Shown: one piece after another, positions 21,281 through 41,266 of the stretch
Position numbering within the stretch: the stretch's first letter is position 1
Layout of the letters: each line of letters starts with the position of its first letter
Sequence record: OR067838.1
Length of the DNA stretch: 64,000 nt
Direction: 5' to 3' (one strand)
DNA from: Escherichia phage KKP 3954
Program-made: the position numbers and the translations under genes
The notes under the pieces: generated by a model
Databases searched by the model: none
Told to the model about the DNA's origin: nothing
What the model saw: the letters and a program-made list of their open reading frames with translations, nothing else

Positions 21281-23956
21281 TTAGTCGTAATATTTCAAAC
21301 CTGTAATGAACTTCGATCCCCAATCCGCACTTGCGGCGGTGAACGTCAACATCCAAGTTGTAGCTGTACCAGTGAAGACCTCTCGTTGCACAATACCATC
21401 AGTGTGGTAAATGTCCACGCCAGTATGTCCATTCTTAGGAATAGTGAAGGTAACAGCACTGGTAGTGTCTCGTGCATAAGAACAAACAAATGGTGTCCCC
21501 GCCCAAACTGGATTTGTCATATCCCCCATCTCAAGCTGTGGAACCCAAGCAATAAGACCTGCCATACCATCTCCTGCGAAAGTGTCTGATCCACTTGCAT
21601 TCAAAGCTATAATCTCATAGGTTATAGATGCTTGTTTGGCAACTGTCACTTTGTGTAGAATTACACGATACCAACCATTCCCCATATCGATTATGTTTGC
21701 ATCTGCACCTGTAAATGTTCCAGCTACAAGATCATAAGTCCCTTCGTTAATCTCATCTCCTGAAGTCAATTTGAGTTTCACTTTAGTGATCCCATCTGGC
21801 TTCAAGAATACGGATGCCGCCCAGTGCTTACCTGCTGTAATATCAGAAGCTGTATTCACTGCTGATAAAATATGTTGTCCTGAAGTTGTAGAAGGTGTTA
21901 ACTTGTAAGTGTTAGCCGTAGTTCCAACCGGAGAGTTGATTGTTGATGCTGTGACTGTCAAGTTCGTCTTCAACCACGGGGAAGCTGTTGTCAAGTTATT
22001 GTTGATAAAGATATGTATACGGTTGGCTGCTACAACACGTCTACCTTGTGGAGTTGTACCAACATATTCTAAAGGTGCTACGGGAGCAGAACTCTCTGTA
22101 GGTACAAGGATATCTCCAGAAGCCCTGGCATAACGGTTACTCCTGTTGACCTTTACATCCGCCGGAATAGTTTCTTGCGTCAAATCATAGTCCATCACAA
22201 TCACCACAGCATTCACTGCGAGATAAGAACTATCTTCGGCAGTTACCACACCTTGATAAGTTGCTCTACAACCGATACGACAATCCCCATCAGCAACCGC
22301 TGTAATAACGCCTGTAACGGGGTCAACTGTTGCTACCGTAGGATCATTAGAGAAATACTCAACAACCATACCAGGTAAGCTTGCTGCCCCTGTTGGCGTT
22401 ATTTCTGCTACCATTGTTTGTGTTGTTCCTACATCCATCGCAGATAAGCTAGGAGTGTAAACGCTCAATGTTGAAGCATATCCTCCAGAGGTATCTGATA
22501 AAGTTGTTCCTTCAGCGTTTAAGGCTGTCATACCTGCATCAAAACCACCTTCTGCATGGAAAGTCATTAAACCAGTAGATGATATTGTCATGTTTGCAGG
22601 GGCAGAAGAAGTGTATTTAATATTGAAAAGTTTACCTCCTTCTGGGCTAACAGAATGTGTCAACTGTTTAGTTCCACCTACAATACAAATTCCTAAAGAA
22701 TCTGTAGTTAAGCCAGTTGCCAGAACATCACCCGTAATCACGGAGCTTGCTATTGGTGTGAATTTATTATAGTTTAGACCACTATTGAACAGATACGAAG
22801 CTTTCCCATCTTTCCAAATACCGGAATAATACATATCTCCATTATAAACGAAAAAGGTTCCTTGATAACCTAATTGGTTAGTAACATCCATATTCAGCGT
22901 ATGAACGCTTGTGAGCTTGTTTATATCCCAAGAACCCACTCCTTCAGGTTTAACTGGTTTTCCCACTTGGAGTGGATCTCCGCTCGCAGAATCATACCCC
23001 AAACCTAAGTTTGCAGTGTAGTTCTTACCAATAGCCCACAAGGAATTATTGATCCCAACGAAAAAAGAGTGGCGGCTTGGTGGAAACTTCCATGTTGAGA
23101 AACCTGCTGCAAAGGTATCCAGTTTAGTGTAGGTTGTTTCTGTATTAGATCTAACATATAAGTAGTTTACCATACCCGTGCCACCGGAGGTATCTCCTAC
23201 AACTATTGTCTGGGAAACTGTATTGATGTAATCTTTGACATACACTGTTTCAGTAGCGGATATCTTGGCATTGACAAAAGCTGTTGTTGTGTTATTATTA
23301 CCTGCTAAACCTTTACTAGCTCCACAAACACGCAAGGTTCCCACATTGTTGACATAAGAGCATTGGTTGTAACCTGCATCAAAAGCAACTGCTGCACTCG
23401 TTATTTGACGAGGAGTAGAAACTTCGTTAGTAGTACTTGCACCTAAACTGCCTACTGTGTTTTGACCCGATCCATAAAGAACGCCACTATTCATTAACCA
23501 GAGAGTGTTATTATATCCTCCCTTAACCTCTTTAAGATTGGCTAAAGAGATAGTCCCCGTTATTACAGATGGAAAGCTGGTCCAAGTAGTTACACATGCA
23601 TCCATACCACCTGCTGCTATAGATCCTACCAACCCTGCTGTCAATCCTGAATATTGCCATCCCCCACTATTAGTTTTAATAATAAAACAACGATCTGCGG
23701 TAAACACATCCGCTACTACAGTAGAAGCTAAGTAGAAATTATTGAATCGTGCACTACGAGTTCCATCTGCAATCTCACCAAAAAGGTTTGCACCTTGAGT
23801 AAACAATCTACCATCGTTAAGCAAAATTGCTAAACTACTGTTAGAATTACCAGCATTGTCTGGGTAATCTAAAGTGATTACTTTTTTAACAATACCCGCT
23901 GGCAGAGGAACGACACCAGTACTGGTCATAATAGTAAATATTGGAATTGGAAACAT
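21281..23956 (-). CDS. tail fiber/tailspike-like protein (receptor-binding candidate)
   Basis: 891 aa, Gly/Thr/Ser/Asn-rich; GGAGGG RBS; last gene of tail block. Confidence 0.55.
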   Translation of the reverse strand: MFPIPIFTIMTSTGVVPLPAGIVKKVITLDYPDNAGNSNSSLAILLNDGRLFTQGANLFGEIADGTRSARFNNFYLASTVVADVFTADRCFIIKTNSGGWQYSGLTAGLVGSIAAGGMDACVTTWTSFPSVITGTISLANLKEVKGGYNNTLWLMNSGVLYGSGQNTVGSLGASTTNEVSTPRQITSAAVAFDAGYNQCSYVNNVGTLRVCGASKGLAGNNNTTTAFVNAKISATETVYVKDYINTVSQTIVVGDTSGGTGMVNYLYVRSNTETTYTKLDTFAAGFSTWKFPPSRHSFFVGINNSLWAIGKNYTANLGLGYDSASGDPLQVGKPVKPEGVGSWDINKLTSVHTLNMDVTNQLGYQGTFFVYNGDMYYSGIWKDGKASYLFNSGLNYNKFTPIASSVITGDVLATGLTTDSLGICIVGGTKQLTHSVSPEGGKLFNIKYTSSAPANMTISSTGLMTFHAEGGFDAGMTALNAEGTTLSDTSGGYASTLSVYTPSLSAMDVGTTQTMVAEITPTGAASLPGMVVEYFSNDPTVATVDPVTGVITAVADGDCRIGCRATYQGVVTAEDSSYLAVNAVVIVMDYDLTQETIPADVKVNRSNRYARASGDILVPTESSAPVAPLEYVGTTPQGRRVVAANRIHIFINNNLTTASPWLKTNLTVTASTINSPVGTTANTYKLTPSTTSGQHILSAVNTASDITAGKHWAASVFLKPDGITKVKLKLTSGDEINEGTYDLVAGTFTGADANIIDMGNGWYRVILHKVTVAKQASITYEIIALNASGSDTFAGDGMAGLIAWVPQLEMGDMTNPVWAGTPFVCSYARDTTSAVTFTIPKNGHTGVDIYHTDGIVQREVFTGTATTWMLTFTAASADWGSKFITGLKYYD

Positions 23957-23969
23957 TTAAACCCTCCAT

Positions 23970-23995
23970 AAAAAGAAAGCCCCTTTCGGGGCTTC
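23970..23995 (-). terminator. rho-independent terminator on minus strand
   Basis: GAAGCCCC-GAAA-GGGGCTTTC then TTTTT on minus strand. Confidence 0.5.
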
Positions 23996-23997
23996 TG

Positions 23998-26022
23998 CTA
24001 TCGTGTTACAACAACCATGTCCACGATATCACCCACACCAGGATACGTTAATTGCAAAATTGTTACTGCGTTAGCAGTAGTTGCTATTTCTGTATCATTC
24101 AGTGCTCCATAAGACGCATCTAGTGTAACCGTGTGTCCCGTTGTATCTTGAATCAAATAAATCATTGCTGAAAACGCTTTAGGTTTTGTAGAGCCAGTGA
24201 CACCAGGCCATGCTCCAACTGTCAGAGCGTCAGTTACTGTAACAACATACATATTGGAAGTTCCAGAAGGAGTCCAAGATGCTCCAGAGTTGGTAGTAGT
24301 TGTTTCAAGTTCCATGAAACCTGCTGTAACTCTAGTTGGTGTTATAGCTTCCGTAGGATCTGATCCTGATATTTCGATCCAGTTTCCATCAGAACGACCA
24401 TACGTCAAGCCGTCTTGAGGGGCTTCTGGTATACTAGGAAGAGTTCCTATAAGTGTCCACGTAGAAGAATCTGTTTTCTTAAACACTGCTCCAGTGGTAG
24501 TATTGAAGGCGTAATCATTGATAACACCGTCTCCTGCGACTGGATTAGTTGTTGCTACAAACCACTGTGCGCCGTCCTTACCGTTGGTCCCATCAATACC
24601 GTTGGTTCCGTTTGTTCCAGGATCACCCTTATCTCCTTTATCCCCTTTTTCACCTTTGTCGCCTTTAATACTTCCCATGTCAACAAAAGATGCGGAATTG
24701 GTGTCTTGATCGTAGGTATAGATGTAAAGATTACTAGTGTCTTCAGTTAAGTAGGCATCGCCATAGTTATTGTAAACAGGTAGAGCTTCACTGTTCGGAA
24801 CATGACCTTTAGCTGTAATTGATGTTCCTCCAAGACTACCAACATTCATCCATTCCGTAGCATCTTGAACCCAAACATACAAATCATTATTAATTTTATA
24901 TGCGTCACCTACTTCTCCAGTCGGAGGAAGTTCAGCTTCGCTGTTCAGAACCCCGATAATCTCTAAACCTGATCCTGTTGCACCCACTGGTCCTTGTGGA
25001 CCTAATTCGCCTTGTGGTCCTCGTTCTCCTTGCTCTCCCTTGTCTCCTTTTGGACCTTTAAGCGAGGCAATAAAATCTACTTCTGTCCCTTCATTACCAG
25101 CATCCAGCCAACTTTGATATGCAGATTTCCCTTCATCTCCATCTGTTCCATCTAGACCGTCTTTACCTGCCTCACCTTGTGGACCTTGAGGACCAACAAT
25201 ATTACCCATGTTGACCCAAGCTGTCCCATTGGAGACATAAAGATTACCACTGATAGAATAAGCTTGGCTTACGTTTTCAGAGTTAGGTTGTGGTAAGTTA
25301 CTTGTAGAAGGCAAATCCCCACGATAATCAAAACCATTAGCGTTGACACCAGGTGCACCCTGTGGACCTGTAGGACCAACGTCTCCTTTATCACCTTTTA
25401 TAGAGGCAAGAAAGTCATAAACAGATCCTGTATTACCATCTGCCAACCATACCTCGTAAGCTGATTTCCCTTCTGGTCCAAGAGAAGAAATAAGTTTCCA
25501 AACAGAACCGTCCCAAGCGTAAATCACATCACCTACGATATAACCATCCCCTGCAACGTTACCTGTAGATGGTAGTTCACTAGTGCTTGCTAATGATCCT
25601 TTAATATTAAGTTGAGCACCAGTATCCCCTTTCAAAGAAGCAAGCCATTGTGCTTCTGTTCCAACAAAACCATTATCAAGTGCGATCTGATAAGCCGATT
25701 TACCAGCTTCAGGTATTGCTTCTGACAAATCATCGATCTGTTGTTGCACTGCCGTAAACTTGGCATTGATAATTGCTATATCATCAGCGGTCCCAACACT
25801 TTGCCATGCAAGGGAAGAAATACCACCTGTGGTGGCTGGCGTAGAGTTTGCTGGAACTACTTTAGGAAAAGTTCCTTTCCATTGGTAATAATTCCCTTCT
25901 GCCGCTAACAGCAAAACTTCACGGGAATTACGTAATGTAAAACCTGCCTCAAAGCTGCGACGTTTTCGATAAGTAGCTTCTACCAGATCGGCTATCGCAC
26001 TATTAGGTCTTGTTAAATTCAT
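23998..26022 (-). CDS. collagen-like repeat tail fiber protein
   Basis: Several Gly-X-Y runs (GPQGPQGEAGKDGLDGTDG, GDKGEKGDKGDKGDPG) and three repeats of GKSAYxxWLxxGxxGxxxDFxASLKG. Confidence 0.6.
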   Translation of the reverse strand: MNLTRPNSAIADLVEATYRKRRSFEAGFTLRNSREVLLLAAEGNYYQWKGTFPKVVPANSTPATTGGISSLAWQSVGTADDIAIINAKFTAVQQQIDDLSEAIPEAGKSAYQIALDNGFVGTEAQWLASLKGDTGAQLNIKGSLASTSELPSTGNVAGDGYIVGDVIYAWDGSVWKLISSLGPEGKSAYEVWLADGNTGSVYDFLASIKGDKGDVGPTGPQGAPGVNANGFDYRGDLPSTSNLPQPNSENVSQAYSISGNLYVSNGTAWVNMGNIVGPQGPQGEAGKDGLDGTDGDEGKSAYQSWLDAGNEGTEVDFIASLKGPKGDKGEQGERGPQGELGPQGPVGATGSGLEIIGVLNSEAELPPTGEVGDAYKINNDLYVWVQDATEWMNVGSLGGTSITAKGHVPNSEALPVYNNYGDAYLTEDTSNLYIYTYDQDTNSASFVDMGSIKGDKGEKGDKGDKGDPGTNGTNGIDGTNGKDGAQWFVATTNPVAGDGVINDYAFNTTTGAVFKKTDSSTWTLIGTLPSIPEAPQDGLTYGRSDGNWIEISGSDPTEAITPTRVTAGFMELETTTTNSGASWTPSGTSNMYVVTVTDALTVGAWPGVTGSTKPKAFSAMIYLIQDTTGHTVTLDASYGALNDTEIATTANAVTILQLTYPGVGDIVDMVVVTR

Positions 26023-26059
26023 TTATCTCTCCTATCATTAGACCATTCTATTGGAAGAA

Positions 26060-26079: not shown

Positions 26080-26083
26080 TCCA

Positions 26084-28801
26084 TTAGGTTGTTGGCACAT
26101 CTACTACTGGCGTTGGGCGAATAACCGCAGTATTACCTACAGAAACATTACTGGAATCATTAGGTATGGTTTTAATTCTAACTCCAGCACTTGTAGGCGT
26201 TACAATTGGATCTGCAATGTCTATTTTAACTGGGTTAGTCCACGTATCATTATCTTGATAAGGTGCACGAGTAATAACTGTGTCCAAATCTGCTCCACCT
26301 ACGCCAGCACCAGGAATACGGATACGTGTCCCTGCTGACAGAGGGTAATGATACAACCAAGAAGCATTTGTTGCTGTCCCGTTAGGAGTCAAGTTCTGTG
26401 TCAGGAAGGTATCTCCTGCCTGTGTAGCTCGAATACCGAAAGCTGGGATATCTGGAATATATGCCCCACTTGTTGTTACAAGGAAGAACGTATTATCCGC
26501 CTTGACTATCATATCACCTTTGTCAAACTCTTTCCCTGTTGGGAAATGCATTCCATCAATGTTTCGACTAGGATTAGGCTCTAAGTAATAAACTTTGCCC
26601 GTTGTCCCTACAATAGCTCCAATACCACCTGCGATATTGGTATACATATTAGCTTCAACATTACAGTTGACACGATGAATATCCGAGTAACGGCAACGGC
26701 TCCACTGTGGACGACCAGTAACCATCGTCTTGCCATCTGGGTAACAGTTTACGTTAACCATTTCAAGAACAGATTTTTCTCTACGGAAGAATCCATCATA
26801 AAATGTCCCTGGACCAGATTCAGGTTGACCAACACAATCGAAGATATTACAGGTAATGTTAGACATTGAAAGCCAAGAAGCTATACCGAACAACTGCAAT
26901 GCAGCGCAACGAATATTTTCAAAGCTAACTCTGTTTTCATAACCTGGACCAGCGGAAACTCCCGCAAAAACACGCCCAGTTTTGGTGTGAATGTTACGAA
27001 CAGAATAGTTAAAGCATGGATTTGAAGGTCTGCCCTGTGCCGGAACTACCGGATTACCTTCTTCGTCCAGAACTGCGTTAGTTCCCCACTCCAAATAAAT
27101 CATACGGATATTACTTGCAAGTGTGCTACCGTCTGTTTTAGGCTCTCCATAAACACCGTCAATCGTAAAATCTTTACTTCCATACATTACAACTGCGCCA
27201 GTTGCCAAACCTGTCCCAACAGATACAGTCTGGTCTGGATCGCCATGAATGTTTTCGATAGAGATATTACGACCAACTTCTACATGGACAATCTGACGAC
27301 AACGTTTTGCAAAAACGTTACGAATTGTAATATTCTTGCAATATTGATCATCAGGGATTCCGTAACCATATGGTCCTTTACCAGCTACACCGATACCGAT
27401 ACCCCAGTTGGACAGAGGAATAGGAGCGTTAGTCCCATCGATATTAGACAGGTAAATATTCTCAATCACACAACCATCGTCATAATGTTTATTGATGACG
27501 TTCAGTTCTATTGCATCACCTTGCATGTCCATGAAGGTAAGGTTACGGAAGACACCACGTGTTACTGGTTCCCCTGTTCCTTGTTGAAGGATGCCATACA
27601 ACCCGTTTTTAAAAATACAGTTATCAATTTCAAAAATACCTGATATTGGGTTGCCTTGGAATACCAAGCTACCAACTTGACCTGCGCGAGGAGCACCGTC
27701 CCACAAACAATCGAACATGCGCACAGCACCACCCCAATACATAACACGAGAGTTACGGAAAGTTGTGCCTTCTACTGTAGCATTTTGCACACGATAGTCG
27801 CGTTGACCACGGAACACACCCCCACGCAAAGTGATACCTTGAATATCAAAAGAGCTTGTCGTGAAAGTCATATCGCAACCGTAAGCATCGAGAATCTTGC
27901 TTTTCGAAGCTTTTGCTGCTAACAGTGCCGCTTGGAAAGCTGCTTCTGGTGTGGTATATGTTGTTGTGTTGTTAGCAAATTCTGACAAGTAGACAACATC
28001 GAATAAATCGTTGTATGTTCCACCACGAGGGGTTAACAGTCCTTCTGTATTGGTCAGAACCCATGCATTTGGACCTAATCCACCGCTTGTCTCCAATGTA
28101 TCAGAGGCCAAAATACTTTTTGGTAAACTTCCAGCCCAACGATAACGACCAGCACCACGTCCAATCGTCTGATTTTTAGCTGTCAGAGTTACGTTATTAC
28201 CAAAGCTTGTAGGCAAATGAACAAACTGTCCACGTTCAACAGCTAGTGCAGAAAGATCTACAGACCCCCCAGAATAAGTCATTACTCCAGAAACAGACAA
28301 GGATGTTAAAGTTCCTGTGATGTTAGGAGGTAATGTGTAGGAAGACTGTGCTACTGGATCATACAGAGCTTTAATCCCTGTTAACGATTGACCTGCTGTT
28401 GCGTAAGCCACCTCATCATCTAACAAACCATATTTACGAGCAATAGTTTGCAGAGGGACTTTATCCATGCTTTCTGTTAGTTCTTCCGTTTTTGTTTCTA
28501 AACTAACAAGACGGTTCTCTAGATTAGGATCTGTATCTGCTGAAGCTACGATTTTACCAATATAAGCAAAAAGCTTGTTTGGTAGTCCTGTTGCAGGATC
28601 GTGTCCCAAAGGTTCAGATAAGATGATCTTACTATCTTCTATACGGAAAGCTTCTCCCAGAACCTGAATAACACCGTTGATAGTAACAATAGCACTGTCA
28701 AAAATATAAGGAGGACTAATTACTGTTTCATAACCCGTTGCACCAGAATATACCCACGGGGTGACTTCTGTTGCTAATTGTTCTGTTTTCAGTCCCCACA
28801 A
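26084..28801 (-). CDS. tailspike protein with parallel beta-helix (pectate lyase-like) repeats; probably the C-terminal body of a gene whose N-terminus is 28819..29139
   Basis: 905 aa with beta-helix-like repeats (NITIRNVF, NISIENIHGD); TTG start without RBS; frame open upstream into previous ORF. Confidence 0.55.
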   Translation of the reverse strand: MWGLKTEQLATEVTPWVYSGATGYETVISPPYIFDSAIVTINGVIQVLGEAFRIEDSKIILSEPLGHDPATGLPNKLFAYIGKIVASADTDPNLENRLVSLETKTEELTESMDKVPLQTIARKYGLLDDEVAYATAGQSLTGIKALYDPVAQSSYTLPPNITGTLTSLSVSGVMTYSGGSVDLSALAVERGQFVHLPTSFGNNVTLTAKNQTIGRGAGRYRWAGSLPKSILASDTLETSGGLGPNAWVLTNTEGLLTPRGGTYNDLFDVVYLSEFANNTTTYTTPEAAFQAALLAAKASKSKILDAYGCDMTFTTSSFDIQGITLRGGVFRGQRDYRVQNATVEGTTFRNSRVMYWGGAVRMFDCLWDGAPRAGQVGSLVFQGNPISGIFEIDNCIFKNGLYGILQQGTGEPVTRGVFRNLTFMDMQGDAIELNVINKHYDDGCVIENIYLSNIDGTNAPIPLSNWGIGIGVAGKGPYGYGIPDDQYCKNITIRNVFAKRCRQIVHVEVGRNISIENIHGDPDQTVSVGTGLATGAVVMYGSKDFTIDGVYGEPKTDGSTLASNIRMIYLEWGTNAVLDEEGNPVVPAQGRPSNPCFNYSVRNIHTKTGRVFAGVSAGPGYENRVSFENIRCAALQLFGIASWLSMSNITCNIFDCVGQPESGPGTFYDGFFRREKSVLEMVNVNCYPDGKTMVTGRPQWSRCRYSDIHRVNCNVEANMYTNIAGGIGAIVGTTGKVYYLEPNPSRNIDGMHFPTGKEFDKGDMIVKADNTFFLVTTSGAYIPDIPAFGIRATQAGDTFLTQNLTPNGTATNASWLYHYPLSAGTRIRIPGAGVGGADLDTVITRAPYQDNDTWTNPVKIDIADPIVTPTSAGVRIKTIPNDSSNVSVGNTAVIRPTPVVDVPTT

Positions 28802-28818
28802 TACCCAGTTATTATCCC

Positions 28819-29139
28819 CTACTGGAGAATACCTTGCATAGGGATTGGGTTTACCAATGTAGCATTAGGAGCATAATAATAACCGCTCAATACCCCATTC
28901 TGGAAATAACGCAGTTGGTTAAAAACCGTTTCATTTGTGCCTTGCGCCCAATCCAATGGACTTTTAAAGAAAAAGTTGTCAACAAGGGCTTTTCTCAGGG
29001 TTGGTATCAACCCTGATTCTGTTTCAATACTCTCTGTAGCACTTCCATTAATAACATCATGGAGTTGGTTAGACGAGAAAATAACCAGATCTACGCCCTG
29101 TTCAAGAGACGTTGCTGGATATGTTGGGAATGTTGCCAT
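28819..29139 (-). CDS. tailspike N-terminal domain (likely same gene as 26084..28801, separated by a -1 frame break)
   Basis: ATG with AAGGGG RBS; downstream ORF frame is open from 28862. Confidence 0.5.
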   Translation of the reverse strand: MATFPTYPATSLEQGVDLVIFSSNQLHDVINGSATESIETESGLIPTLRKALVDNFFFKSPLDWAQGTNETVFNQLRYFQNGVLSGYYYAPNATLVNPIPMQGILQ

Positions 29140-29487: not shown

Positions 29488-30033
29488 TTATTCCGTCGGT
29501 AATGTAGGCCAATCTATAGCGTAAGGATAGTTTTTTTGAAGCGGAACACGGTTTAGTTTAACCACATAAACTTGAAGATTTTTAAGATAAGTTAATTCAT
29601 CTTCAGTAGCCATTTCTAAATCTTTAGCATATTGTAAAGGTGTTATAAGTGCTACCGCTGTTTCTTGTAAAGAGCGAATCTTTGCACTAGCTTGTGTCAT
29701 CAACTCTTCACGGGAATACTCTTTATCCTTAAGAGTTAAGGTTTCTAAATCCAAAACCTTGTTCCTAATATCCTCAAAAGTATCTATATTAAAGTCTACT
29801 TGTGCTATAGAAAGATCTTCAGGGCAAAGTAGTGTAGGATCAGTATTCCAAAACACAATACGATTTTGATCATCAAAAACGACTTTCATTTTGTCGTTAT
29901 TGAATTCTGTGCTACGTAAATCATACCAATCGTAACCTTGATCACAACGAAGGAAAAGAATGTTCTCTGCTTCTACCAATTCTTTTAGTTCAGGATCTTC
30001 AGGAATATACTTTTTAAAATTTGTAAATATCAT
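29488..30033 (-). CDS. hypothetical protein (tail fiber-associated)
   Basis: ORF track; position between fiber genes. Confidence 0.45.
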   Translation of the reverse strand: MIFTNFKKYIPEDPELKELVEAENILFLRCDQGYDWYDLRSTEFNNDKMKVVFDDQNRIVFWNTDPTLLCPEDLSIAQVDFNIDTFEDIRNKVLDLETLTLKDKEYSREELMTQASAKIRSLQETAVALITPLQYAKDLEMATEDELTYLKNLQVYVVKLNRVPLQKNYPYAIDWPTLPTE

Positions 30034-31734: not shown

Positions 31735-31736
31735 TT

Positions 31737-33224
31737 TTACACTCCATACTCGTAAGAAATGTTATCAAGGTCAAAAGAAGGGACAACATTATAAGCAGGA
31801 ACTATATTATTCTCTGTATATTTACTGTCATCCTCAGTATTAAGTTTAACATAAACACGAAGAGAAGTCAAGCGTCCAAAAGCAAGTGCTGCATAAATAA
31901 CACCTTTGATTTGATCGTTCGTTACTGAAGAACCTAATTCAAAGTAAGCTTGCAGGTTTTGTAAAGCTTCTACAATGTTTTGTTTTTCTGTTCCACTTAA
32001 AGTTGTTCCGTTGACAGTTTGATAAACAAGTTTTACGGAATACATAGCAGAGGCTCCAGGAGAGAAACGAATAATTTCTTGTCCTCCGTCTTCTGTTGTA
32101 ACTGTTATGTTCGTTGTTCCATGTGTCAAAGTGTTGATTGGTTTAGTTTTATAAATAACCTCGGCAACTTCTTCAGCACTTCCTCCATAAACTATAGTCT
32201 GGAAAGTCATAGCTGGAGCATGTTCTTGATCATGCAATGTAGGGTTATCATAAATCTTCACCTTGGTAACACCATCGGTAAGCAACAGTGCTTTCACAAT
32301 AGCTGCACGTGTCCCTGCATTAGCTTCGTCTACGTTGTCATTGAAACGAGAACGGAATTCTGCATCTGTCTCAACGTCTCGACCAGGAGAAAATGAATAG
32401 AAGTTACCACTATCAAGATAACCTGTGAAGGTAGAAGAGATACCTGTAATGGACTCTACACCCACCGGATTATATCCTTTCTCTGCTGCAACTACCGGAA
32501 TTTCACTCCATTTGGTTCCAACTGGAACACTAGCATAAAATTTGATAGGAGTTACTAGTCCCACTGGAGTATCATTGGTTAAAGAAGTAAAACCAATTGA
32601 CAAGTTACCAGAATCAGAAAATACAAGACTACGATCAGCCTCTGTTAAGTTTGCCTTGATAAAAGTTTCAAGATCGGCTATAAATGTAGAAGAACCAGGT
32701 GCAAGTGTTTTACTGTTTAGTCCTCCATCTATCGCACTTTGTGCATAAAAGGTAATATTTGGAACACCTGTAGCAGTTGCATTAGCACGAGAAATTTGAT
32801 AAGCTGCAATCTTAGCATTCAACATAGTTGGTGTGCTAACATAGTAGTTCATATCGCTATCAGAGTTGAAGTAAATATCTGTGCCTAACTCGTAAGTCCA
32901 AGCTGCTTTGTTATTACTTTTAACATATGCATAACCTGTGCTTGCTGCTGCCCCTGCTCGATAGAAACCACGTTTAGAAAAGATTTCGTCAAGATAAATA
33001 CCTTCTGCACCATCCAGTGTTTGAGTATTATAAACCCCTTGCATACCTTCCCACAATGTGTAATCTGTGTATGCAATTATTCTAAACAGTTGTCCGATCA
33101 CAGTATCTTCCGAAGTGGCTGCATCTGCACCAAATGTGTTTTTTACTGCTGTCATGTAGTTGTTTAAAACATCGTCAAAAGTCGGGATTACAAATCCCGC
33201 ATCTGTCAAACCATATTCGTCCAT
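31737..33224 (-). CDS. putative baseplate wedge (J-like) protein
   Basis: ORF track; size and position. Confidence 0.4.
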   Translation of the reverse strand: MDEYGLTDAGFVIPTFDDVLNNYMTAVKNTFGADAATSEDTVIGQLFRIIAYTDYTLWEGMQGVYNTQTLDGAEGIYLDEIFSKRGFYRAGAAASTGYAYVKSNNKAAWTYELGTDIYFNSDSDMNYYVSTPTMLNAKIAAYQISRANATATGVPNITFYAQSAIDGGLNSKTLAPGSSTFIADLETFIKANLTEADRSLVFSDSGNLSIGFTSLTNDTPVGLVTPIKFYASVPVGTKWSEIPVVAAEKGYNPVGVESITGISSTFTGYLDSGNFYSFSPGRDVETDAEFRSRFNDNVDEANAGTRAAIVKALLLTDGVTKVKIYDNPTLHDQEHAPAMTFQTIVYGGSAEEVAEVIYKTKPINTLTHGTTNITVTTEDGGQEIIRFSPGASAMYSVKLVYQTVNGTTLSGTEKQNIVEALQNLQAYFELGSSVTNDQIKGVIYAALAFGRLTSLRVYVKLNTEDDSKYTENNIVPAYNVVPSFDLDNISYEYGV

Positions 33225-33466
33225 TAGTCATCCTCTTTGGTAGATTGTGATCTGCCCCAACGTAAATCAATAAGATTTTTCATGAGGCGAGAAGGGGTTA
33301 TCATGAAAACAAAAGCCCAACCCATCCATTCAGGAATTTCTTTTTCTATTCCTAAAAAGATAAACATGCCTGTCATAACCGACATGCCTACAGCGTTCCA
33401 GACTTTAGTAGAACTGACTTTATTATCAGGATATATACAGAACATACCTATTAAAAATTTTCTCAT
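33224..33466 (-). CDS. small membrane protein (2 predicted TM helices)
   Basis: ORF track; hydrophobic. Confidence 0.4.
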   Translation of the reverse strand: MRKFLIGMFCIYPDNKVSSTKVWNAVGMSVMTGMFIFLGIEKEIPEWMGWAFVFMITPSRLMKNLIDLRWGRSQSTKEDD

Positions 33467-33768
33467 AGTGCGTTCTCATTACTTTTTAAATCACGAGATA
33501 CAGCTAATTCCCCAAGGTCTACAGAACCCGCTGAATGCACAAATACAGCAGCACTAAGACTAATGGCAGTAGTACCTGGGGCAATATCAGCAGGTAGGGA
33601 ATACGCCCTTTGCGTCTCCTTGTCATAGATAACCTTATACCCACCCAAATCCACACCAACTGAGAAATAAACAACTTCTGATTGCTTAACTCCGAAGTGA
33701 CGGGCTATAGCTTGCTTGTTAGTTTGTTTTGCTACCGAGCCTGTTGGCTGAGTAAACATTTCATTCAT
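33463..33768 (-). CDS. hypothetical protein
   Basis: ORF track. Confidence 0.45.
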   Translation of the reverse strand: MNEMFTQPTGSVAKQTNKQAIARHFGVKQSEVVYFSVGVDLGGYKVIYDKETQRAYSLPADIAPGTTAISLSAAVFVHSAGSVDLGELAVSRDLKSNENAL

Positions 33769-33820
33769 GGATTAATCCTCGTGTTTTAGTTTTAAATGCC
33801 CCGCCGAAGCGGGGTTTTGT

Positions 33821-36217
33821 TTAGTCGGTTATGCTTGATATCGCTGCATACTGGTTCACGGATACAGGAGTTGCGTCTATTCTAGTGTTTCTCGATGATG
33901 ACCTAACCATCAGAAACACCATAGCGCGTCCAGATCCGTCAACATACTTGAGTATCCCTGTTGTATTTGCGGATATTTGTTGTAGGAATATCTGTCCTTG
34001 CGTTGTCGATGTAATAACAGCCGGAGTAGACACCACGGCTGAACCGATTATAAATACACTTATTTTTCCGGATAATTGATACAAAAGCGCCGCAGTTCCA
34101 GAAAACGTACCGGATGCCAATGTAACATTTATATCCCCCGACAACCGGATATACGCGCTTGGTGATGCCGTTATTGTTACGGATGAAGCGTTTATACGAA
34201 ACCCTTTATAACTGGTTACGACTCTGGTAAGTGAGACAGACCCTGTTACATTTATAACGAAGTCGCCGCGAAAACCACCTTTTTGTCTAACGATGTTTAC
34301 AATTTCTATCGCCCGCTCCAGAGATGCTACAGCCCTACCAGAAACAAATCCGGAGTTCTCATCGTTACCAGTTGCAGGGTTAACAAAGATTTCTCTCGTG
34401 AAATCCATCCCTAAATAGTTTACAGCAGACCAGTTACCAATACTTCCATAATCAGTAATAGCAGGGCTTACATTCTCTACGCGCAATGGTGCATTAGTGA
34501 ATGTTCCACCAACCATCCCATTAGAGAACCCTCCGACTGGGGGCATACCACGAGCAATAACTTTACGCTCAGTACCATCTTGACCACAGAAGAAGAACCC
34601 ATAGGAAAGACAGGTATAGTTAATTTGCGACCAGTTATCCAAATCTATATAACTGTTAGCTATCACAAAATTGTGACGCATAATCATATTGCCGCCTACA
34701 TCTTCTACGTGCGGCTTTCGTAAGTGAATGTCTGTATCGTTAAATGCGAACGCCTGCCTCCACCATTCAACGACAGGTTCGTCGATAACAAAATCACGAA
34801 CTGTATCGCAAGTTATACCAGTATTCTGATTTTTTCCTTCAGCAGTCCATGCCGTTGCTGGATAGACTAATTCTGGATTGTCGGCGTTAGCACCAACTCG
34901 TGCAACATAAGGATTGGTTATACGTAGCCCGGCGTTTGCCTTATAAAGATGGATACCCTGACGCATAGCCAGCACTTTAGGGGAACGGAAATCAGCACCC
35001 CATGACCATCTAAAATACATTCCTAACATGGGTGCTGATACCAGATTACCGCCACGTTCTGTGATTCCTATACTGGTTTTTGTACCTTTACATCCAGGGG
35101 ACATTGAGAAGTTAAGACCTATCTTGACACCGCCAGAACATGCTACTGATAGGTCGAATAGGAATCCATCTGACATCGTGATATAACCGTTCACATCGGT
35201 AATATCGTTGTCAGGCGTGCCGATTAAAGCGCCAGTTTTCCTCACATAAGAAATACCTGACAACTCAAAAACAACTGGTTCTGTAGCAGCGGTGTTTAAA
35301 TCCGTCGGAGCATAATAAAAACCAACTGGTATTTGTCTGTTGAAATAGGTCTGCGCACCAACCTGATCGTAATGTACATGACGCATAAGCAGGAGCGGAA
35401 CAGCAGACTCTACACGAGAAGTAAACACCACATGAACTGGTTTAAGGCTATATTTATATGCCTCCAAAGCTGTAGCGTTGGCGTAAGATGATGCCATACC
35501 CGCTGTGATATAAGAGTTCAGAGCGTTGATTTTTTCTGTGCCTGTTCCGGCGAAATCATCAACGTAAAGCTCATTAATCAGTTTCGCATACAATCCATTC
35601 ACGATTGGCATCGGCGTGACTTCGGAAACAATCTCCCATCTGGATCCACCAGTTGACACTTTCTGACCCAGAATAAGAGTTGCATCAGCAGCCATAGCCT
35701 GGATATTACTAAAGCCGTGCACATAACGATCTCCACCCTCACTAGAGATGTTTTCTTTAAGAGATGCATCGCCAACACTAACCCACGCTCCTAATTTAAC
35801 CTCACCTGTGCTATCTGGAGTTGAACCAGTTGGAACTATTTTTGGTAGGTCACTATCCCAAGTGTAGCACTGACCACCTGCAATATACCAAACAGCATCA
35901 GTAGATGTGGATACAGTAGCCCCCTCTTCAAAACTACCATCAACAAGTGTTAACCCCGCTTCAGCAAGACTACGACGCCACTGTTCACGATCATTAAGAA
36001 GATTGTTATTCAACTCTTCCTGAACAGTATTACCATTTGAGGATTGTATTAAATCTGCTCCATCTGTATCTTTCAACTGGGTGGCTAAAACCACCCCAGT
36101 GTCAGTAAGAAAGTTGGAAACTGTGCTTTTAACAGTTTTATCAGGTTGATCTAAAACCAGGTAATCTGAACCATTAACTTTTGATGTTTCGGGTAAATTA
36201 GTAATTGTAGTTGACAT
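33821..36217 (-). CDS. tailspike/tail fiber protein
   Basis: 798 aa; GGAG RBS; Gly/Ser/Thr-rich body consistent with a beta-structure enzyme domain. Confidence 0.55.
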   Translation of the reverse strand: MSTTITNLPETSKVNGSDYLVLDQPDKTVKSTVSNFLTDTGVVLATQLKDTDGADLIQSSNGNTVQEELNNNLLNDREQWRRSLAEAGLTLVDGSFEEGATVSTSTDAVWYIAGGQCYTWDSDLPKIVPTGSTPDSTGEVKLGAWVSVGDASLKENISSEGGDRYVHGFSNIQAMAADATLILGQKVSTGGSRWEIVSEVTPMPIVNGLYAKLINELYVDDFAGTGTEKINALNSYITAGMASSYANATALEAYKYSLKPVHVVFTSRVESAVPLLLMRHVHYDQVGAQTYFNRQIPVGFYYAPTDLNTAATEPVVFELSGISYVRKTGALIGTPDNDITDVNGYITMSDGFLFDLSVACSGGVKIGLNFSMSPGCKGTKTSIGITERGGNLVSAPMLGMYFRWSWGADFRSPKVLAMRQGIHLYKANAGLRITNPYVARVGANADNPELVYPATAWTAEGKNQNTGITCDTVRDFVIDEPVVEWWRQAFAFNDTDIHLRKPHVEDVGGNMIMRHNFVIANSYIDLDNWSQINYTCLSYGFFFCGQDGTERKVIARGMPPVGGFSNGMVGGTFTNAPLRVENVSPAITDYGSIGNWSAVNYLGMDFTREIFVNPATGNDENSGFVSGRAVASLERAIEIVNIVRQKGGFRGDFVINVTGSVSLTRVVTSYKGFRINASSVTITASPSAYIRLSGDINVTLASGTFSGTAALLYQLSGKISVFIIGSAVVSTPAVITSTTQGQIFLQQISANTTGILKYVDGSGRAMVFLMVRSSSRNTRIDATPVSVNQYAAISSITD

Positions 36218-36225: not shown

Positions 36226-38379
36226 CTATATATAAAATTTTTGTGTTGTTACTAAATCTTCTCCAGATTTAGTGGCTAATGTAATTCCACTTATGGTGGC
36301 AATCTCAACATTTACCTGTTTAAGAGTGATATCCTGTAAATAAACGTTCAAAGGCACGTTACCCATATAGAAAACTTGGGATTGAGAATTAACTACCGTG
36401 ATAGAATCATGCATTATTTGAGGATAGGCCCATATATATTGTGTAAGTCCGTCAAACTTATTGGCGTTCAACACTATGTTACCTATAATCATCTTCCAAA
36501 GATATGTGCGGTAGTTTGATTTAGGATCAAAGCCATACAAAGGTGCAAGAGTAGCATCTGGAACAAAACCTGAAAGGTAGTGAATATCAGAATATTCAAA
36601 ACCTAATTTTTCATGTGGTATAGTAATTGCATCAAATGCTTTCATCATCTTACCTTCCAGAAGCCAGTCATAACACTCTGAACAGTAAAAATCAAAAGCT
36701 TCAGGAATGTAGTAATCAGACGGGAAGTTAACTTTCTCCATCAAACCGTTGCCGATAATTGATGGCAAGAACGGAAGCAATGTTACCTTGGCTCCTGGGT
36801 AAGTTGCTCTAGTATCTGTTGCAAACTTTGTAACTCTTAATCCTAGTTTACGAGACAAAAATGCATAGTATTCGTCAAACGGCGTTCCTGTTTTATAATT
36901 ATCTATTGTTCCTGCATCTTGTGCAAATAAACCTGTTTCTGTGTTGAATGCCAGTTTGGTAGTGTAATCATATATGCAAGGCATTTTACTTGCTGTATTA
37001 TACCACCACCAAGGCTCACCAATTTGAATGACAACTGGAATATTATTAGCTTGCGAAATAGATGCTATTTTATTAATAACATTTTGCAAATATTCCATAC
37101 CTTCGTCAATAGTTGGAGACAATACGTAACTAGGAGGCTCATACCCTGTTGCTGCAAGAGCATCGTTCCAATCATGCTGGACCCATTCTACAGGACAAAC
37201 TGTGCTCATCAACTCAAAACTTAAAGAGTTCATTATTGTGTAACCCTTCTCGTTCGCTATAGCATGGAAACTATTTAGCCAAGCTTCTGTAGCGGGATTC
37301 AGGAAGACAGATCTATTTAAAGCCCAAGATGTTCCGTTCCATGAGAACTCATAATAGTGAGACATTCCATTGTAATGGTTAATCATTCCACGATAACCTA
37401 GCGCATATGTATTATAAATAACTCTCTCTGGAGTCAGGTTATACATATCATCATAAGATGTGCACATGCGAATATCATGTTCAGGCTGGACAAGGTTGCT
37501 GACTTTCATCATACTATAACCAGAAGTAGGTTCAAGAAGAGTGAAAGTAAACCAAGCCTCTTGACTGTCAATAGGTACAATCTCTTCTATTTCTTCATAC
37601 CTCGTTGTAATCAAAGAGAAGAAAATATCATCTACAGCACTCATATCCAAAGGAATATCATTATTAGGACCAGAGAAGATATTACCAAAATCTAATTTGA
37701 TTGTGGCTGTTTTACCATCTTCTGAAATATCTGAAGCGTAGAATCCTAAACTGACATAATGAACACTTTTATCCAAGAGAGTTACAGTCAAAGTCGGCAC
37801 CAAAGGTTCTTCTTTAAAACCTGGCATGTTTTGACTAATTTCCATTTTAAACCAAAGTTTCTCTGAACTTAAATCTGTGTGGGGTAAATACCCAACACCT
37901 TTATGGTCATATTTGTCAACTGTGCTCCAGATAACCCCTGCCAAACCTGCTGCTGTTCTGTTTACAAATCTTGCAGTAAAAGAGTCTCCATGAGATACAA
38001 TAGAACAACTTTCCGTTGCTTGAGAATCTATTGTCCAATACATAGGAGAGAACATTTTAACGTCTTTTGTAGTCCAAGTTATTGGAGTAGTATTTTCTTG
38101 GATCGTAGTTATAATACAATTGATGGTCGTTTCAACCATCATGTTATTTTGACTAATCCCTGAAACTTGGAGGGAGAAGTTAAGATCTATTGAGTTCTTT
38201 GGTCGTTCAAATACTTCAACCACAATGGTAGCAGAATCAGCATCATCAGGGAACACAAGTGTTCCCGATTTTGCAATATAATCTCTACCAGCGACTGCTG
38301 TTCCATCAACAGTCGTGTAGTTAAATGAACTCGCATTTACTCTCTTGTCTCGCGTGACAGTAAATATAGCTTGTTTCAT
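36226..38379 (-). CDS. tail fiber-associated protein
   Basis: 717 aa; AAGGGG RBS. Confidence 0.5.
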   Translation of the reverse strand: MKQAIFTVTRDKRVNASSFNYTTVDGTAVAGRDYIAKSGTLVFPDDADSATIVVEVFERPKNSIDLNFSLQVSGISQNNMMVETTINCIITTIQENTTPITWTTKDVKMFSPMYWTIDSQATESCSIVSHGDSFTARFVNRTAAGLAGVIWSTVDKYDHKGVGYLPHTDLSSEKLWFKMEISQNMPGFKEEPLVPTLTVTLLDKSVHYVSLGFYASDISEDGKTATIKLDFGNIFSGPNNDIPLDMSAVDDIFFSLITTRYEEIEEIVPIDSQEAWFTFTLLEPTSGYSMMKVSNLVQPEHDIRMCTSYDDMYNLTPERVIYNTYALGYRGMINHYNGMSHYYEFSWNGTSWALNRSVFLNPATEAWLNSFHAIANEKGYTIMNSLSFELMSTVCPVEWVQHDWNDALAATGYEPPSYVLSPTIDEGMEYLQNVINKIASISQANNIPVVIQIGEPWWWYNTASKMPCIYDYTTKLAFNTETGLFAQDAGTIDNYKTGTPFDEYYAFLSRKLGLRVTKFATDTRATYPGAKVTLLPFLPSIIGNGLMEKVNFPSDYYIPEAFDFYCSECYDWLLEGKMMKAFDAITIPHEKLGFEYSDIHYLSGFVPDATLAPLYGFDPKSNYRTYLWKMIIGNIVLNANKFDGLTQYIWAYPQIMHDSITVVNSQSQVFYMGNVPLNVYLQDITLKQVNVEIATISGITLATKSGEDLVTTQKFYI

Positions 38380-38387
38380 TTTACCCC

Positions 38388-39305
38388 TTACTCGGTAACG
38401 TCCACACTAATGTTTGCCATTGTCAAAACAGTAAGTGCAGGAATATTGCTCGAATCCAAAACAGGTAATGCATTTTGGGGATTAAGTTTTTTGTATAAAG
38501 CATACAACCCAAAACCACGTAACAACTCTCCAGCGTGGAAGCCAAAGAAGACTCCGTTATCACTATCTGGTCTAGGAGCGGAACTCCAACAGCCATTCAT
38601 AACATGATTAGGACCAAGAACAATATAATTTTCCTGAATAAGTTCAAAACAGCGGTCTGCTACTATTTTAATGTTAGGAATTTCTGAATCATACCCAGCC
38701 ATCCCCATTATAGCACATCCTGCCATAAAGAGCGCAGACATGTGACTTGTAAAGTCATCTACAGGTGCTGCCACTTCTCCGTTGGGATAAAATATTGTTG
38801 GTGTTCTTCCTTCGTTGTTGTCTTGGAACCACTTTAGATAGTTGATCCAGTTTTTACAAACTGTTAAAAGTTTTTCAGGAACTTCTGCCCCTCGTTGTTT
38901 CAGTTCGTATACTGTATGACACGCACAGAAGAATGCTCGTGCTTCATAACCATCCCAAGCTTTATCGTTCCAATGATACATTGTGAACTCATTCTTGTTT
39001 CCGTATTTATGAGCATCCCAACGATCCCAAACATAAGCTTGTGCCATTGGTCCAGGCATCACAGGGGCAAACTTATTATAAAACCACATTTGTGAATCAT
39101 ATAAAAAGTCTATACTGTTGTTCATACGAACCCAATCAATATCTCTCCCTTTAAAACAATATAAGGATGGGTATTGATAACCTGGGTAAGGAATACCACG
39201 CCAACCGTCATATAAGGCTGTGTTAGGATCACTGATATTGGAAAATGGAATGATTCCTGGAGTATAATTCAAACTGTTAAGTTTGTAGTCCAGTATTGTA
39301 TACAA
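38388..39305 (-). CDS. hypothetical protein (TTG start, no RBS; frame open upstream into 39269..41266)
   Basis: ORF track; 37-nt overlap with upstream gene. Confidence 0.45.
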   Translation of the reverse strand: MYTILDYKLNSLNYTPGIIPFSNISDPNTALYDGWRGIPYPGYQYPSLYCFKGRDIDWVRMNNSIDFLYDSQMWFYNKFAPVMPGPMAQAYVWDRWDAHKYGNKNEFTMYHWNDKAWDGYEARAFFCACHTVYELKQRGAEVPEKLLTVCKNWINYLKWFQDNNEGRTPTIFYPNGEVAAPVDDFTSHMSALFMAGCAIMGMAGYDSEIPNIKIVADRCFELIQENYIVLGPNHVMNGCWSSAPRPDSDNGVFFGFHAGELLRGFGLYALYKKLNPQNALPVLDSSNIPALTVLTMANISVDVTE

Positions 39306-41266
39306 TCTCCAAGTTTTGCTGTATAAGGATTTTCAGATGAAACTGTAACCCTGAAATACATTGTGTAATCATCACCAGTGGCTGAAGAATACAAAGATGG
39401 TATATCGTTAACGCAATAAAAATCGATTGCCCCTGTCAAGCCATTTGCAGGTTCAGAATCCAATGCAATATTGATCTGATCAACAGCAGTCAGGTTTATT
39501 GACGAAGGTTTTGCCTCTGTGTCTTCGTGATTAGGTTGCCAAGTACTTAATTTGAAATCGGCAGGACTTAAAGCTTTAGTAACCCATGCAGAATTTGTTT
39601 TTTCTAACATGGCCCACCATCTCCAACCTGCGGAATCCGTAATAGTGATGTTAAAATCATCTGCGTATGAACGATACGTAATAGATTTTAAATTGGCTGT
39701 TTTAGTTGGTGTTAACCAAAACCCAACAGTAAAACCACCATCTGAATCCATATTAGCAGAAACTATCTGATCACTATTTGTCCCAGCAATACCAGTTGCA
39801 TATTTATATTGTATCACAGTATTGCTTCCCCAGTCAACAATGATTCTAGGTTCAGCAATAATATATACACCACCCCCAGGAGGTTCGGTGCGCATAAAAC
39901 TGGATAGAGGTATATCCATCTTAGTCATATTAGCTGCACCAAGAGGTAAGCCACAACGATATGTCACTGTATCTGTTTCACTCTTAGTCTTGCTTAATTC
40001 TAACTCTGGACGGAAAAGAACACCTTCCCCTGCATCATCTACACCTTGAAACTCAATACGCAGTTTTGAATTCTGATCCACTCTGAACCAAACTGCCTGT
40101 TGTTCTAGAGTTGTTTGTGCTGCAACATCTTGGCGAATTACTGTGTATCCTAACTCGTCACGAGAATATTTAGGTATTGCTGTAGATGGGTATGAGTAAT
40201 CATACGAGATACCGTCTGTAAAAGGAATTATTGCTGTAGTAGATCTACGGAAGAATTTATCAAACATATCAATGTTTGAGTAGTCTTGGCACAGCAATAA
40301 AGAAGATTGCCAGCAAAGCCAGTATTTTCTCTCTCCTGTGATCTGATACATCAGGTAGTTTGCATCACACCACCACGTTTCAGCATCGGAAGCATTATCT
40401 TGATAACCTAACTCTACCGGAACGTTTACAGGACGGTTATGCCACATCTCATTACGCTTAAGCAGATATCCACCGTGTTCTACAGGGTTGCATGTAGCGT
40501 AGTTGAATTTATAGTCACCGTTCACAGAAGCATTTTTAAGCTGCACTGTTCCATATTCTGCGAAGCTGTGACCTGTAGATAAAATGTTACCATCCCAATC
40601 AACTTTACGTCCTAGACGATCTATAATCCATTCAACGTCCCACTGATCTCCATATTCTTTCCAGTTGGTTGAACCATCTGGGTTAATTGCATAAACTGTT
40701 GCGTTAACGGAGTTCCAACCAAGATTACCATTGAAAGCAAACCAAGCTTTATCTAAGTATTCCCCCCAATGCGGTGCACCTTTAGGAATAACAGTCCTTC
40801 CGTTAATCCAAGTCATCATGCTACCTTTGAACCCGCCGTGCGTAGGATACCCATCATCTGTGAGAGGGTAATGTGCTAAACGTGGTTCTTTACCATTGAT
40901 GATCCAGTTGGGACGATATTTAGCTGGAGGATCAGGAATAGGTTGGCCCCCGAAGAAGTGATCTATATAAGCTTGCCAATACTTTTCGGCAGATTCAAGA
41001 TATTTTTTATCCCCTGTAGCCAAATATGCATAAGCAAAACCAGTGATAAGCACAGATTGACCTTCGGTAGTAGCGTCACCGTTTGGTTGCCCTTCCTGCG
41101 CTGTCCAGTTAATAAAGTGTCTGTTGTTCGCCAATACGTTTTGTGGGTTGATAATGTAGTGCTGAACCGTAGGATCTATGGTAAGCCCAGTATTTCTTTC
41201 CAAAAACTGAACCAACCCTTCAATCAACTGAAACGTGTTGTCAATATTGTGCTTAACTCTTGACAT
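39269..41266 (-). CDS. tail fiber/tailspike-like protein
   Basis: 665 aa ORF. Confidence 0.5.
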   Translation of the reverse strand: MSRVKHNIDNTFQLIEGLVQFLERNTGLTIDPTVQHYIINPQNVLANNRHFINWTAQEGQPNGDATTEGQSVLITGFAYAYLATGDKKYLESAEKYWQAYIDHFFGGQPIPDPPAKYRPNWIINGKEPRLAHYPLTDDGYPTHGGFKGSMMTWINGRTVIPKGAPHWGEYLDKAWFAFNGNLGWNSVNATVYAINPDGSTNWKEYGDQWDVEWIIDRLGRKVDWDGNILSTGHSFAEYGTVQLKNASVNGDYKFNYATCNPVEHGGYLLKRNEMWHNRPVNVPVELGYQDNASDAETWWCDANYLMYQITGERKYWLCWQSSLLLCQDYSNIDMFDKFFRRSTTAIIPFTDGISYDYSYPSTAIPKYSRDELGYTVIRQDVAAQTTLEQQAVWFRVDQNSKLRIEFQGVDDAGEGVLFRPELELSKTKSETDTVTYRCGLPLGAANMTKMDIPLSSFMRTEPPGGGVYIIAEPRIIVDWGSNTVIQYKYATGIAGTNSDQIVSANMDSDGGFTVGFWLTPTKTANLKSITYRSYADDFNITITDSAGWRWWAMLEKTNSAWVTKALSPADFKLSTWQPNHEDTEAKPSSINLTAVDQINIALDSEPANGLTGAIDFYCVNDIPSLYSSATGDDYTMYFRVTVSSENPYTAKLGDCIQYWTTNLTV

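Follow-up and report, generated by a model that had tools for sequence, protein, structure and literature searches.

A multivalent adsorption apparatus was reportedly described for phage phi92 (genus Justusliebigvirus, subfamily Stephanstirmvirinae) by Schwarzer et al. in 2012. According to a cryo-electron microscopy (cryo-EM) study of 2026, the phi92 virion presents three types of fibres in six copies each, all of them carried by the wedge protein gp145: the L-shaped fibre I ends in gp143, a branch arising at the base of this fibre forms fibre II, and fibre III corresponds to gp147 (PMC13450770). Here, a stretch of 64,000 nucleotides from Escherichia phage KKP 3954 (sequence record OR067838.1), hereafter called the window, was analysed, with the focus on the block of large tail genes at positions 21281-41266. 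A literature search on phage KKP 3954 found no paper. In a large protein database, a protein of this phage showed 100% identity to the 798-aa (amino acid) window protein described below. On its gene content and similarity, the genome of the window is that of a phAPEC8-like myophage of the genus Phapecoctavirus (Stephanstirmvirinae), and the block showed a nucleotide identity of ~97% with the phAPEC8-type genomes SKA64, Ro121c4YLVW and phAPEC8.

The block very probably represents the host-recognition module of a Phapecoctavirus, encoding a multivalent apparatus like that of phi92, in which the genes appearing as split would be intact in reality. To begin with, BLASTP comparisons showed that the order of its genes matches phi92 gp137-gp152 one-for-one, including the orthologues of the wedge proteins gp145 and gp146, and 17 of all the 19 window proteins compared had a positional orthologue with identities of 60-87%, the rest matching through their anchors. 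Thus arranged, window proteins of 336, 244 and 208 amino acids (aa) correspond to the hub gp137 (83% identity), the spike gp138 (72%) and the sheath initiator gp139 (74%), and are followed by a 157-aa protein (41266..41739; gp140, 85%), a 958-aa gene appearing here as open reading frames (ORFs) of 665 and 305 aa (38388..41266; gp141, 83-85%), a 717-aa protein (36226..38379; gp142, 77%) and a 798-aa protein in the gp143 slot (33821..36217), of which only the first 54 aa match phi92, with 94% identity. After these come an 80-aa protein (gp144, 80%), the baseplate wedge proteins of 495 aa (Baseplate_J) and 209 aa (31105..33224; gp145, 81%, and gp146, 87%), a 353-aa short tail fibre (30034..31095; gp147, 74% over aa 1-267), a 181-aa tail-fibre assembly chaperone of the Caudo_TAP family in the position of gp148 (29488..30033; 23%) and a 111-aa protein (gp149, 75%). 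Finally, the series ends with a 1017-aa gene divided here into 106 and 905 aa (26084..29139; gp150, 81% in the N-terminus and 33% in the body), a 674-aa protein (23998..26022; gp151, 60%) and an 891-aa protein (21281..23956), whose immunoglobulin (Ig) part corresponds to gp152 (62%). All the block features located here by coordinates lie on the minus strand. Among them are the six ORFs (891, 674, 905+106, 798, 717 and 665 aa) that an earlier note on this DNA had singled out as large tail proteins, counting the third as a split protein of about 1010 aa, and all six were recovered in the same places and with the same sizes. The short tail fibre and its chaperone, which belong to the same block, had been overlooked there.

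The 798-aa tailspike is the variable element of the module, as the only segment of the block without a counterpart in the close Phapecoctavirus relatives (33725-35762) takes in its whole C-terminal body. The anchor (aa 1-152; 35762..36217) contains Tail_spike_N and, after the 54 aa resembling phi92 gp143, showed 87-90% identity to the spikes that fill this slot in other genomes of the genus Phapecoctavirus. The exchanged receptor-binding body (aa 153-798; 33821..35761) is predicted to have a fold like that of CBA120 tailspike protein 1 (TSP1), aa 285-788 matching that protein (PDB 4oj5) with E=2e-37. From residue 153 onwards, the body showed 85% amino acid identity with the tailspike encoded by a P22-like prophage that lies at argW of E. 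coli T2; for a Gamaleyavirus protein of 1029 aa, the identity was 79%. Moreover, a large protein database showed it joined to four or more anchors of other types, its carriers comprising P22 head-binding anchors, a T7-fibre N-terminus, proteins of 1025-1030 aa and proteins of 643 aa, and the same chimera of anchor and body occupies the gp143 slot in a metagenome scaffold of 148 kb that is phi92-like. The body is, judging from these matches, a horizontally exchanged module with a sharp junction at aa 153. Just downstream of the variable tailspike, a 101-aa ORF (33463..33768) is paralogous to the N-terminal module of the colanidase spike described below (45% identity) and is kept in the relatives (88% identity); it may be an adaptor or the remnant of an earlier spike gene.

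A receptor could be proposed for this body, as the use of a prophage RBP (receptor-binding protein) to deduce the O-antigen of its host is an established inference (PMC10408124). The wzx/wzy cluster of O112ac, a distinct pyruvylated O-antigen with the same backbone as that of S. dysenteriae type 2, was present in all three complete E. coli genomes carrying the spike body, while the O112ac wzy appeared in only 8 of 5,426 genomes. Because of this association with a cluster that is otherwise rare, the 798-aa spike is predicted to target the O112ac O-antigen, a serogroup not included among those of the study cited above. Two of these E. coli genomes, T2 (L008 1-24528) and GPEC87-32-644 (L009 10555-35868), had two adjoining O-polysaccharide loci each, namely O112ac-family wzx/wzy between galF and gnd, and, flanked by wzz and his, an ABC-transporter cluster for a polymannan of the O9 family. 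E. coli CUPS04 had the O112ac cluster only.

The 1017-aa spike could also be given a specificity. Its 905-aa ORF (26084..28801) had been described as a beta-helix protein of the pectate lyase type, a label that Pfam did not reproduce; however, aa 314-888 match the crystallised tailspike gp150 of phi92 (6e0v) with E=6e-79. Moreover, the ORF matched the PHROG for colanic acid degradation (E=4e-281), and the phi92-type gp150 orthologue has a WcaM family domain in the newer Pfam. Compared with phi92 gp150, the N-terminal 103 aa were 81% identical, while the catalytic body showed 33% identity. Hydrolysis of colanic acid has been reported for phi92 gp150 (PMC13450770), and colanic acid is the putative specificity of the 1017-aa spike.

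For the 717-aa protein, Pfam gave matches to Calx-beta, NCTSP_N (58.8 bits) and TIM-barrel_NCTSP (267 bits, E=3e-79), the gathering cut-off of NCTSP being 27 bits. It also matched N4 Gp64 (E=1e-29) and gp65 (E=2e-12), which together form the non-contractile sheath of N4, gp65 being the receptor binder. Infection by relatives of the window phage depends on wecB/nfrB, and these relatives reportedly have homologous spikes of the glycan-deacetylase type (PMC8594841, PMC8669472). The 717-aa protein is therefore proposed to be an RBP, putatively a glycan deacetylase, that engages the N4 glycan receptor dependent on wecB/nfrB, while the name of the NCTSP family is not to be taken as its function, a sheath of this kind being unlikely on a contractile tail. 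On the other hand, the 353-aa short tail fibre is presumed to bind the lipopolysaccharide (LPS) core, as its orthologue gp147 (fibre III of phi92) resembles Mu GpS and P2 gpH and is the presumed binder of the terminal receptor in the LPS core (PMC13450770, PMC8594841). Thus, the earlier view that enzymatic specificities cannot be assigned from sequence did not hold, as proposals of differing strength can be made for colanic acid, an N4-type glycan, O112ac and the LPS core.

The collagen-like fibre previously recognized at 23998..26022 was supported by a match to Pfam Collagen (E=3e-12) and by four runs of G-X-Y with 6, 8, 10 and 11 triplets (35 in total). These lie in the 674-aa protein between a Tail_spike_N anchor (aa 12-77) and a C-terminal knob (aa ~558-674). 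Furthermore, the neighbouring 891-aa protein has a composite layout, consisting of a seven-blade propeller of the RCC1 type (aa 1-380), two Big_2 Ig domains (aa 410-580), a linker modelled with low confidence and a C-terminal domain (aa ~650-830) resembling a GTA head spike fibre (RcGTA, PDB 6tb9, E=2e-13; NCBIfam GTA_spike_fiber, E=1e-19). The AlphaFold2 model of this protein matched UVR8/RCC1 in Foldseek. Its C-terminal third is exchanged among relatives, and in many homologues the match extends over only 65% of the query. It can be described as a putative adhesin made of propeller, Ig domains and GTA-type spike fibre, which may sit on the tail.

The 958-aa protein, whose first part had been listed as a 665-aa receptor-binding or depolymerase-like tail protein, gave a different picture. 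The structure model of the 958-aa form (AlphaFold; pLDDT, the predicted local distance difference test, 86; pTM, the predicted template modelling score, 0.82) is globular and has a glycosidase fold, which argues against a fibre. In particular, helices 8-104, 295-330 and 699-927 form a split (alpha/alpha)6 barrel with beta-sandwich inserts. No match to Pfam, NCBIfam or PADLOC was found for this protein, so that its assignment to the glycosidases is one of modelled fold and not of family membership. Its cluster comprises 478 sequences with a representative 99% identical, full-length homologues (43-55% identity) are encoded by many myophages and prophages, and the family is compact, with 189 representatives at 50% clustering. 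Many acidic and aromatic residues are invariant within it, among them D64, E68, D294, E296, D333, E388 and D750, which could not be superposed on the active site of a glycoside hydrolase (GH). The sequence 'TTEGQ' may resemble the motif of GH8. Four family members (P0279, P0280, P0289 and P0301) reach 1,500-1,800 aa, with extensions beyond the conserved core.

The genes for the 157-aa and 958-aa proteins are kept as a pair in a P2/HP1-like prophage of Pseudomonas fluorescens (L014 8487-11832), with identities of 32% and 46%, respectively, where the order is Baseplate_J, Tail_P2_I, the 157-aa homologue, the 958-aa homologue and a tail fibre gene. Because the homologue lies there between the baseplate and tail fibre genes, we infer that the 958-aa protein is a conserved peripheral component of the baseplate, with a globular model and not a fibre. 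A bolder proposal, which we consider rather unlikely, is that the pair, which received no assignment in the cryo-EM of phi92, forms an active glycanase module carried by the virion in a clade of myophages whose hosts range from Enterobacteria to Pseudomonas. It would build the arm of fibre I and, with the N4-gp64-like putative deacetylase, act on an envelope glycan that is conserved. If true, baseplate depolymerases would include a non-fibrous class that had escaped recognition. Moreover, the glycosidase-type fold suggests the 958-aa protein as a candidate for docking into the unresolved fibre densities of phi92.

The opposite possibility, that one or both of the 958-aa and 891-aa proteins take no part in adsorption, appears somewhat unlikely. 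The former would then be a structural brick with an inactive glycosidase fold, being unusually conserved for an RBP and lacking any match to a glycosidase family at the sequence level. However, many acidic and aromatic residues are kept invariant in its family, and the gene sits between wedge and fibre genes in distant phages. The latter would be a decoration of the capsid or neck, of the kind of a Hoc-like Ig adhesin, as it has Ig domains of the sort usual in decoration proteins, a C-terminal domain matching a head spike fibre and a PHROG match in the category of head and packaging. Against this, its C-terminal third is swapped among relatives in the manner of RBP tips, and its gene closes the tail-fibre operon.

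Two genes of the block are broken in the record. The colanidase gene, which in the annotated relatives is a single coding sequence (CDS) of 1017 aa labelled 'colanic acid degradation', is divided by 2 additional bp at 28828-28829, where the GTAC of SKA64 reads GAATAC in the window record, and in this the earlier description of a split gene was right. Likewise, the 958-aa gene is a single CDS in the relatives and appears in the window as two ORFs, 39269-41266 (665 aa) and 38388-39305 (305 aa), owing to 2 additional bp (TA) at about 39299-300 that change GTAC into GTATAC at 39298-39303. Hence, the 665-aa ORF listed as a large tail protein does exist, but it is a fragment in which residues 1-655 of the 958-aa protein are followed by a short out-of-frame tail. 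An exact search for the GTATAC junction of this gene in viral contigs gave 0 hits and thus no independent support for the insertion. Programmed frameshifting was rejected for both splits, as no slippery heptamer was present, the relatives were uninterrupted, and the sheath and tape measure genes were broken alike.

When the 64-kb window was compared with one intact relative, a total of seven genes were found to be frame-broken by insertions or deletions of 1-2 bp. In addition to the two in the block, these were the genes of the tail sheath (49748 and 48706), the tape measure (47052), the head decoration protein (54004), a 264-aa hypothetical protein (6689) and a 65-aa hypothetical protein (4968). 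Five of the breaks were on or adjoining GTAC sites, three of them being changes of GTAC into GTATAC, and the break in the sheath gene changed GGTACC into GGGTACC. Since a myophage cannot lose its sheath or its tape measure, the frame breaks are probably errors of the record, arising from base-calling that went wrong systematically where a GTAC motif was modified, together with homopolymer errors.

The motif itself was depleted, with 26 occurrences of GTAC in the window against ~198 expected, compared with 71 against 216 in close relatives. Of the 52 sites shared with a 98%-identical relative, 17 survived and 35 were changed, with an overall divergence of 2.0%, the changed sites having turned mostly into ATAC or GTAT and in 3-4 cases into GTATAC. 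The strand converted depended on the base following the motif. Moreover, 52% of the GTAC-linked substitutions were nonsynonymous, compared with 12% in the background, and the 891-aa protein had five such changes (Thr to Ile or Met) at positions where the close homologues compared have Thr, Ser or Ala.

These same sites could be read as scars of restriction, in which cleavage at G^TAC, fill-in and religation would have produced the GTATAC sequences during a purge of GTAC specific to this lineage, leaving the colanidase and 958-aa genes truly inactivated and the apparatus reduced. Enzymes cutting at G^TAC, such as Csp6I/CviQI, leave a 5′-TA overhang, whose fill-in would be expected to yield the TA duplication. 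The depletion of GTAC is indeed a trait at the genus level, as the observed/expected ratio was 0.33-0.39 in two independently sequenced relatives and 0.82-0.86 in phi92-like genomes, and the loss of 35 shared sites at a divergence of only 2% would also agree with a purge. Furthermore, some of the broken genes are plausibly dispensable (the head decoration protein and the two hypothetical proteins). However, the indispensable tail sheath and tape measure genes are broken too, and the breaks in the sheath gene are +1 insertions adjoining GTAC sites that are retained, so they would give no escape from restriction. In addition, the excess of nonsynonymous changes speaks against a purge, the five changes in the 891-aa protein introduce residues absent from all the homologues compared, the dependence on the next base is a k-mer-type signature, and the stop at residue 655 would take away half of the (alpha/alpha)6 barrel of the 958-aa model. 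The scar explanation is thus considered quite unlikely, with errors in the record as the preferred one. Under either of them, the intact gene products are, by comparison with the relatives, those of 1017 and 958 aa. The frame breaks are concentrated at GTAC sites, and automated annotation would misreport them as split or truncated tail proteins.

With the intact products, the apparatus may work as follows. The wedge proteins of 495 and 209 aa would hold fibres and spikes of several kinds at the same time, each directed to another surface glycan. In the gp143 slot, the 798-aa tailspike would cut or bind the O-antigen, predicted to be O112ac, while the 1017-aa colanidase spike would clear colanic acid and the 717-aa putative deacetylase resembling N4 gp64/65 would engage the wecB/nfrB-dependent N4 glycan receptor. 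The 674-aa collagen-like fibre and the 891-aa adhesin, with their exchangeable tips, could add further specificities. Then, the 353-aa short fibre of the Mu/P2 type, made with the help of its chaperone, would bind the LPS core and trigger contraction. The 958-aa protein with the glycosidase fold and its 157-aa partner would be a non-fibrous peripheral component of the baseplate, which could form the arm of fibre I and could also be an enzyme. Finally, the host range would shift by swapping modules behind conserved N-terminal anchors. The earlier suggestion of a branched apparatus recognizing several receptors fits the phi92 model in this respect, but not in all its parts, as the 958-aa protein is not a fibre and the 891-aa protein may not belong to the tail.

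Branching of another kind would be that of the complex of CBA120 and other Ackermannviridae, where the spikes hang from one another through XD domains like those of T4 gp10 and are not attached separately to the wedge. Such an arrangement is suggested by the presence of Tail_spike_N (TSP1/gp66) in the ORFs of 674, 798 and 905 aa (E=1e-19 to 2e-9), by the N-terminal regions matching CBA120 TSP1, TSP3 and TSP4 and G7C proteins, and by the branching of phi92 fibre II from the base of fibre I (PMC13450770). However, the spike genes are scattered among the baseplate genes and do not form a tandem of four, and their N-termini are orthologous to those of phi92 gp143, gp150 and gp151, the fibres of phi92 being attached to the wedge protein gp145. 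Moreover, searches of Pfam, PHROGs and PDB, made at the sequence level only, gave no gp10-like XD domain. A complex of the CBA120 type is therefore very unlikely, and attachment to the wedge as in phi92 is preferred.

A number of observations weigh against the phi92-like apparatus or its parts. The 891-aa protein may not sit on the tail, because the nearest structural relative of its C-terminal domain is a head spike fibre. The cryo-EM study of phi92 gives no assignment for fibre II and makes no mention of gp141 or gp142 (PMC13450770), and for this reason the placement of the 958-, 717-, 674- and 1017-aa proteins on the virion is inferred. When the profile of the 958-aa family was compared with the PDB sequences, the best match to a glycosidase was GH76, with an E-value of only 0.09. 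The O112ac call is an association, in which the three host strains include a near-clonal pair and the identity of the body is 85% and not 100%. Furthermore, the acquired body of the 798-aa spike had no conversions of GTAC into ATAC or GTAT, which also speaks for the scars of restriction.

Some features were recorded around these genes. No tRNA genes were present inside the block. A suspected strand conflict between the window ORF 20330-21217 and phi92 gp153 (both of 295 aa) was dropped, as the two proteins are unrelated. The DNA polymerase of Ro121c4YLVW (L001 140-3373) has an in-frame insertion of ~245 aa that starts with Cys and ends in ...GN|C, which looks intein-like from its sequence, and the DNA polymerase I gene of the window (16056-18653) has an empty site at ~17800-17804, where Ro121c4YLVW has the insertion. 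In addition, four clustered glycosyltransferase genes were found on the plus strand at 9515-12656, two neighbours of which (about 10760-11704 and 11715-12656) are paralogues with 41% identity.

As for what the block means, the design with multiple RBPs seen in phages of the phi92 and phAPEC8 types is a textbook example of broad host range, to which the block itself adds little. This design has already been published for the subfamily (PMC13450770, PMC8594841), and the block is, on its gene content, an ordinary further example. More specific are the prediction of O112ac, which provides the variable spike with a concrete and testable receptor, and the gp143 slot as a place where modules are exchanged with podovirus prophages and N4-like phages.

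Regarding the known systems, the window resembles phi92 in the gene order gp137-gp152, in having a variable gp143 slot and in the N-terminal anchors, the 60-87% identity applying to the hub, spike, wedge, gp140, gp141, gp142, gp147 and gp151. In contrast, the gp143 slot holds an endosialidase in phi92 and a CBA120-TSP1-like putative O-antigen spike in the window, the colanidase has 804 aa in phi92 and 1017 aa in the window, with an extra TSP-N module, and gp152 is a 202-aa Ig protein in phi92, expanded in the window to the 891-aa protein with propeller, Ig domains and spike fibre. The 101-aa ORF is likewise extra in the window. With phAPEC8, SKA64 and Ro121c4YLVW, all the genes of the block are shared, the differences being the replaced body of the 798-aa spike (aa 153-798) and the two block genes broken in the window record. 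The branched tailspikes of CBA120 and the Ackermannviridae are characterized by a tandem of four spikes and gp10-like XD domains, neither of which was found in the block at the sequence level. In N4, gp64 and gp65 (PDB 9lc0, 9yf4) share NCTSP_N and the TIM barrel with the 717-aa protein, and relatives of the window phage have the same wecB/nfrB phenotype; however, they are two proteins forming a sheath on a podovirus tail, while both similarities are found in the window within one Calx-beta protein of a contractile-tailed phage. The 958-aa protein showed 9-13% identity to members of GH8, GH105, GH76 and GH88 (PDB 3ren, 4xuv, 6shm), with no significant match to any of these sequence families, and it differs from the GH barrels in that ~550 residues of beta-sandwich inserts interrupt the barrel and in being encoded by a phage baseplate gene. 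On the other hand, the 798-aa spike has in common with CBA120 TSP1 (4oj5) both Tail_spike_N and the TSP1-like body, and a different specificity would be expected because the identity is only about 25%. Finally, the tailspikes of Lederbergvirus prophages and the RBPs of Gamaleyavirus (PMC10408124) carry the same body, with 79-85% amino acid identity, behind anchors specific to each lineage, while in the window the anchor is the gp143-type N-terminus of Stephanstirmvirinae, in a myophage of 150 kb.

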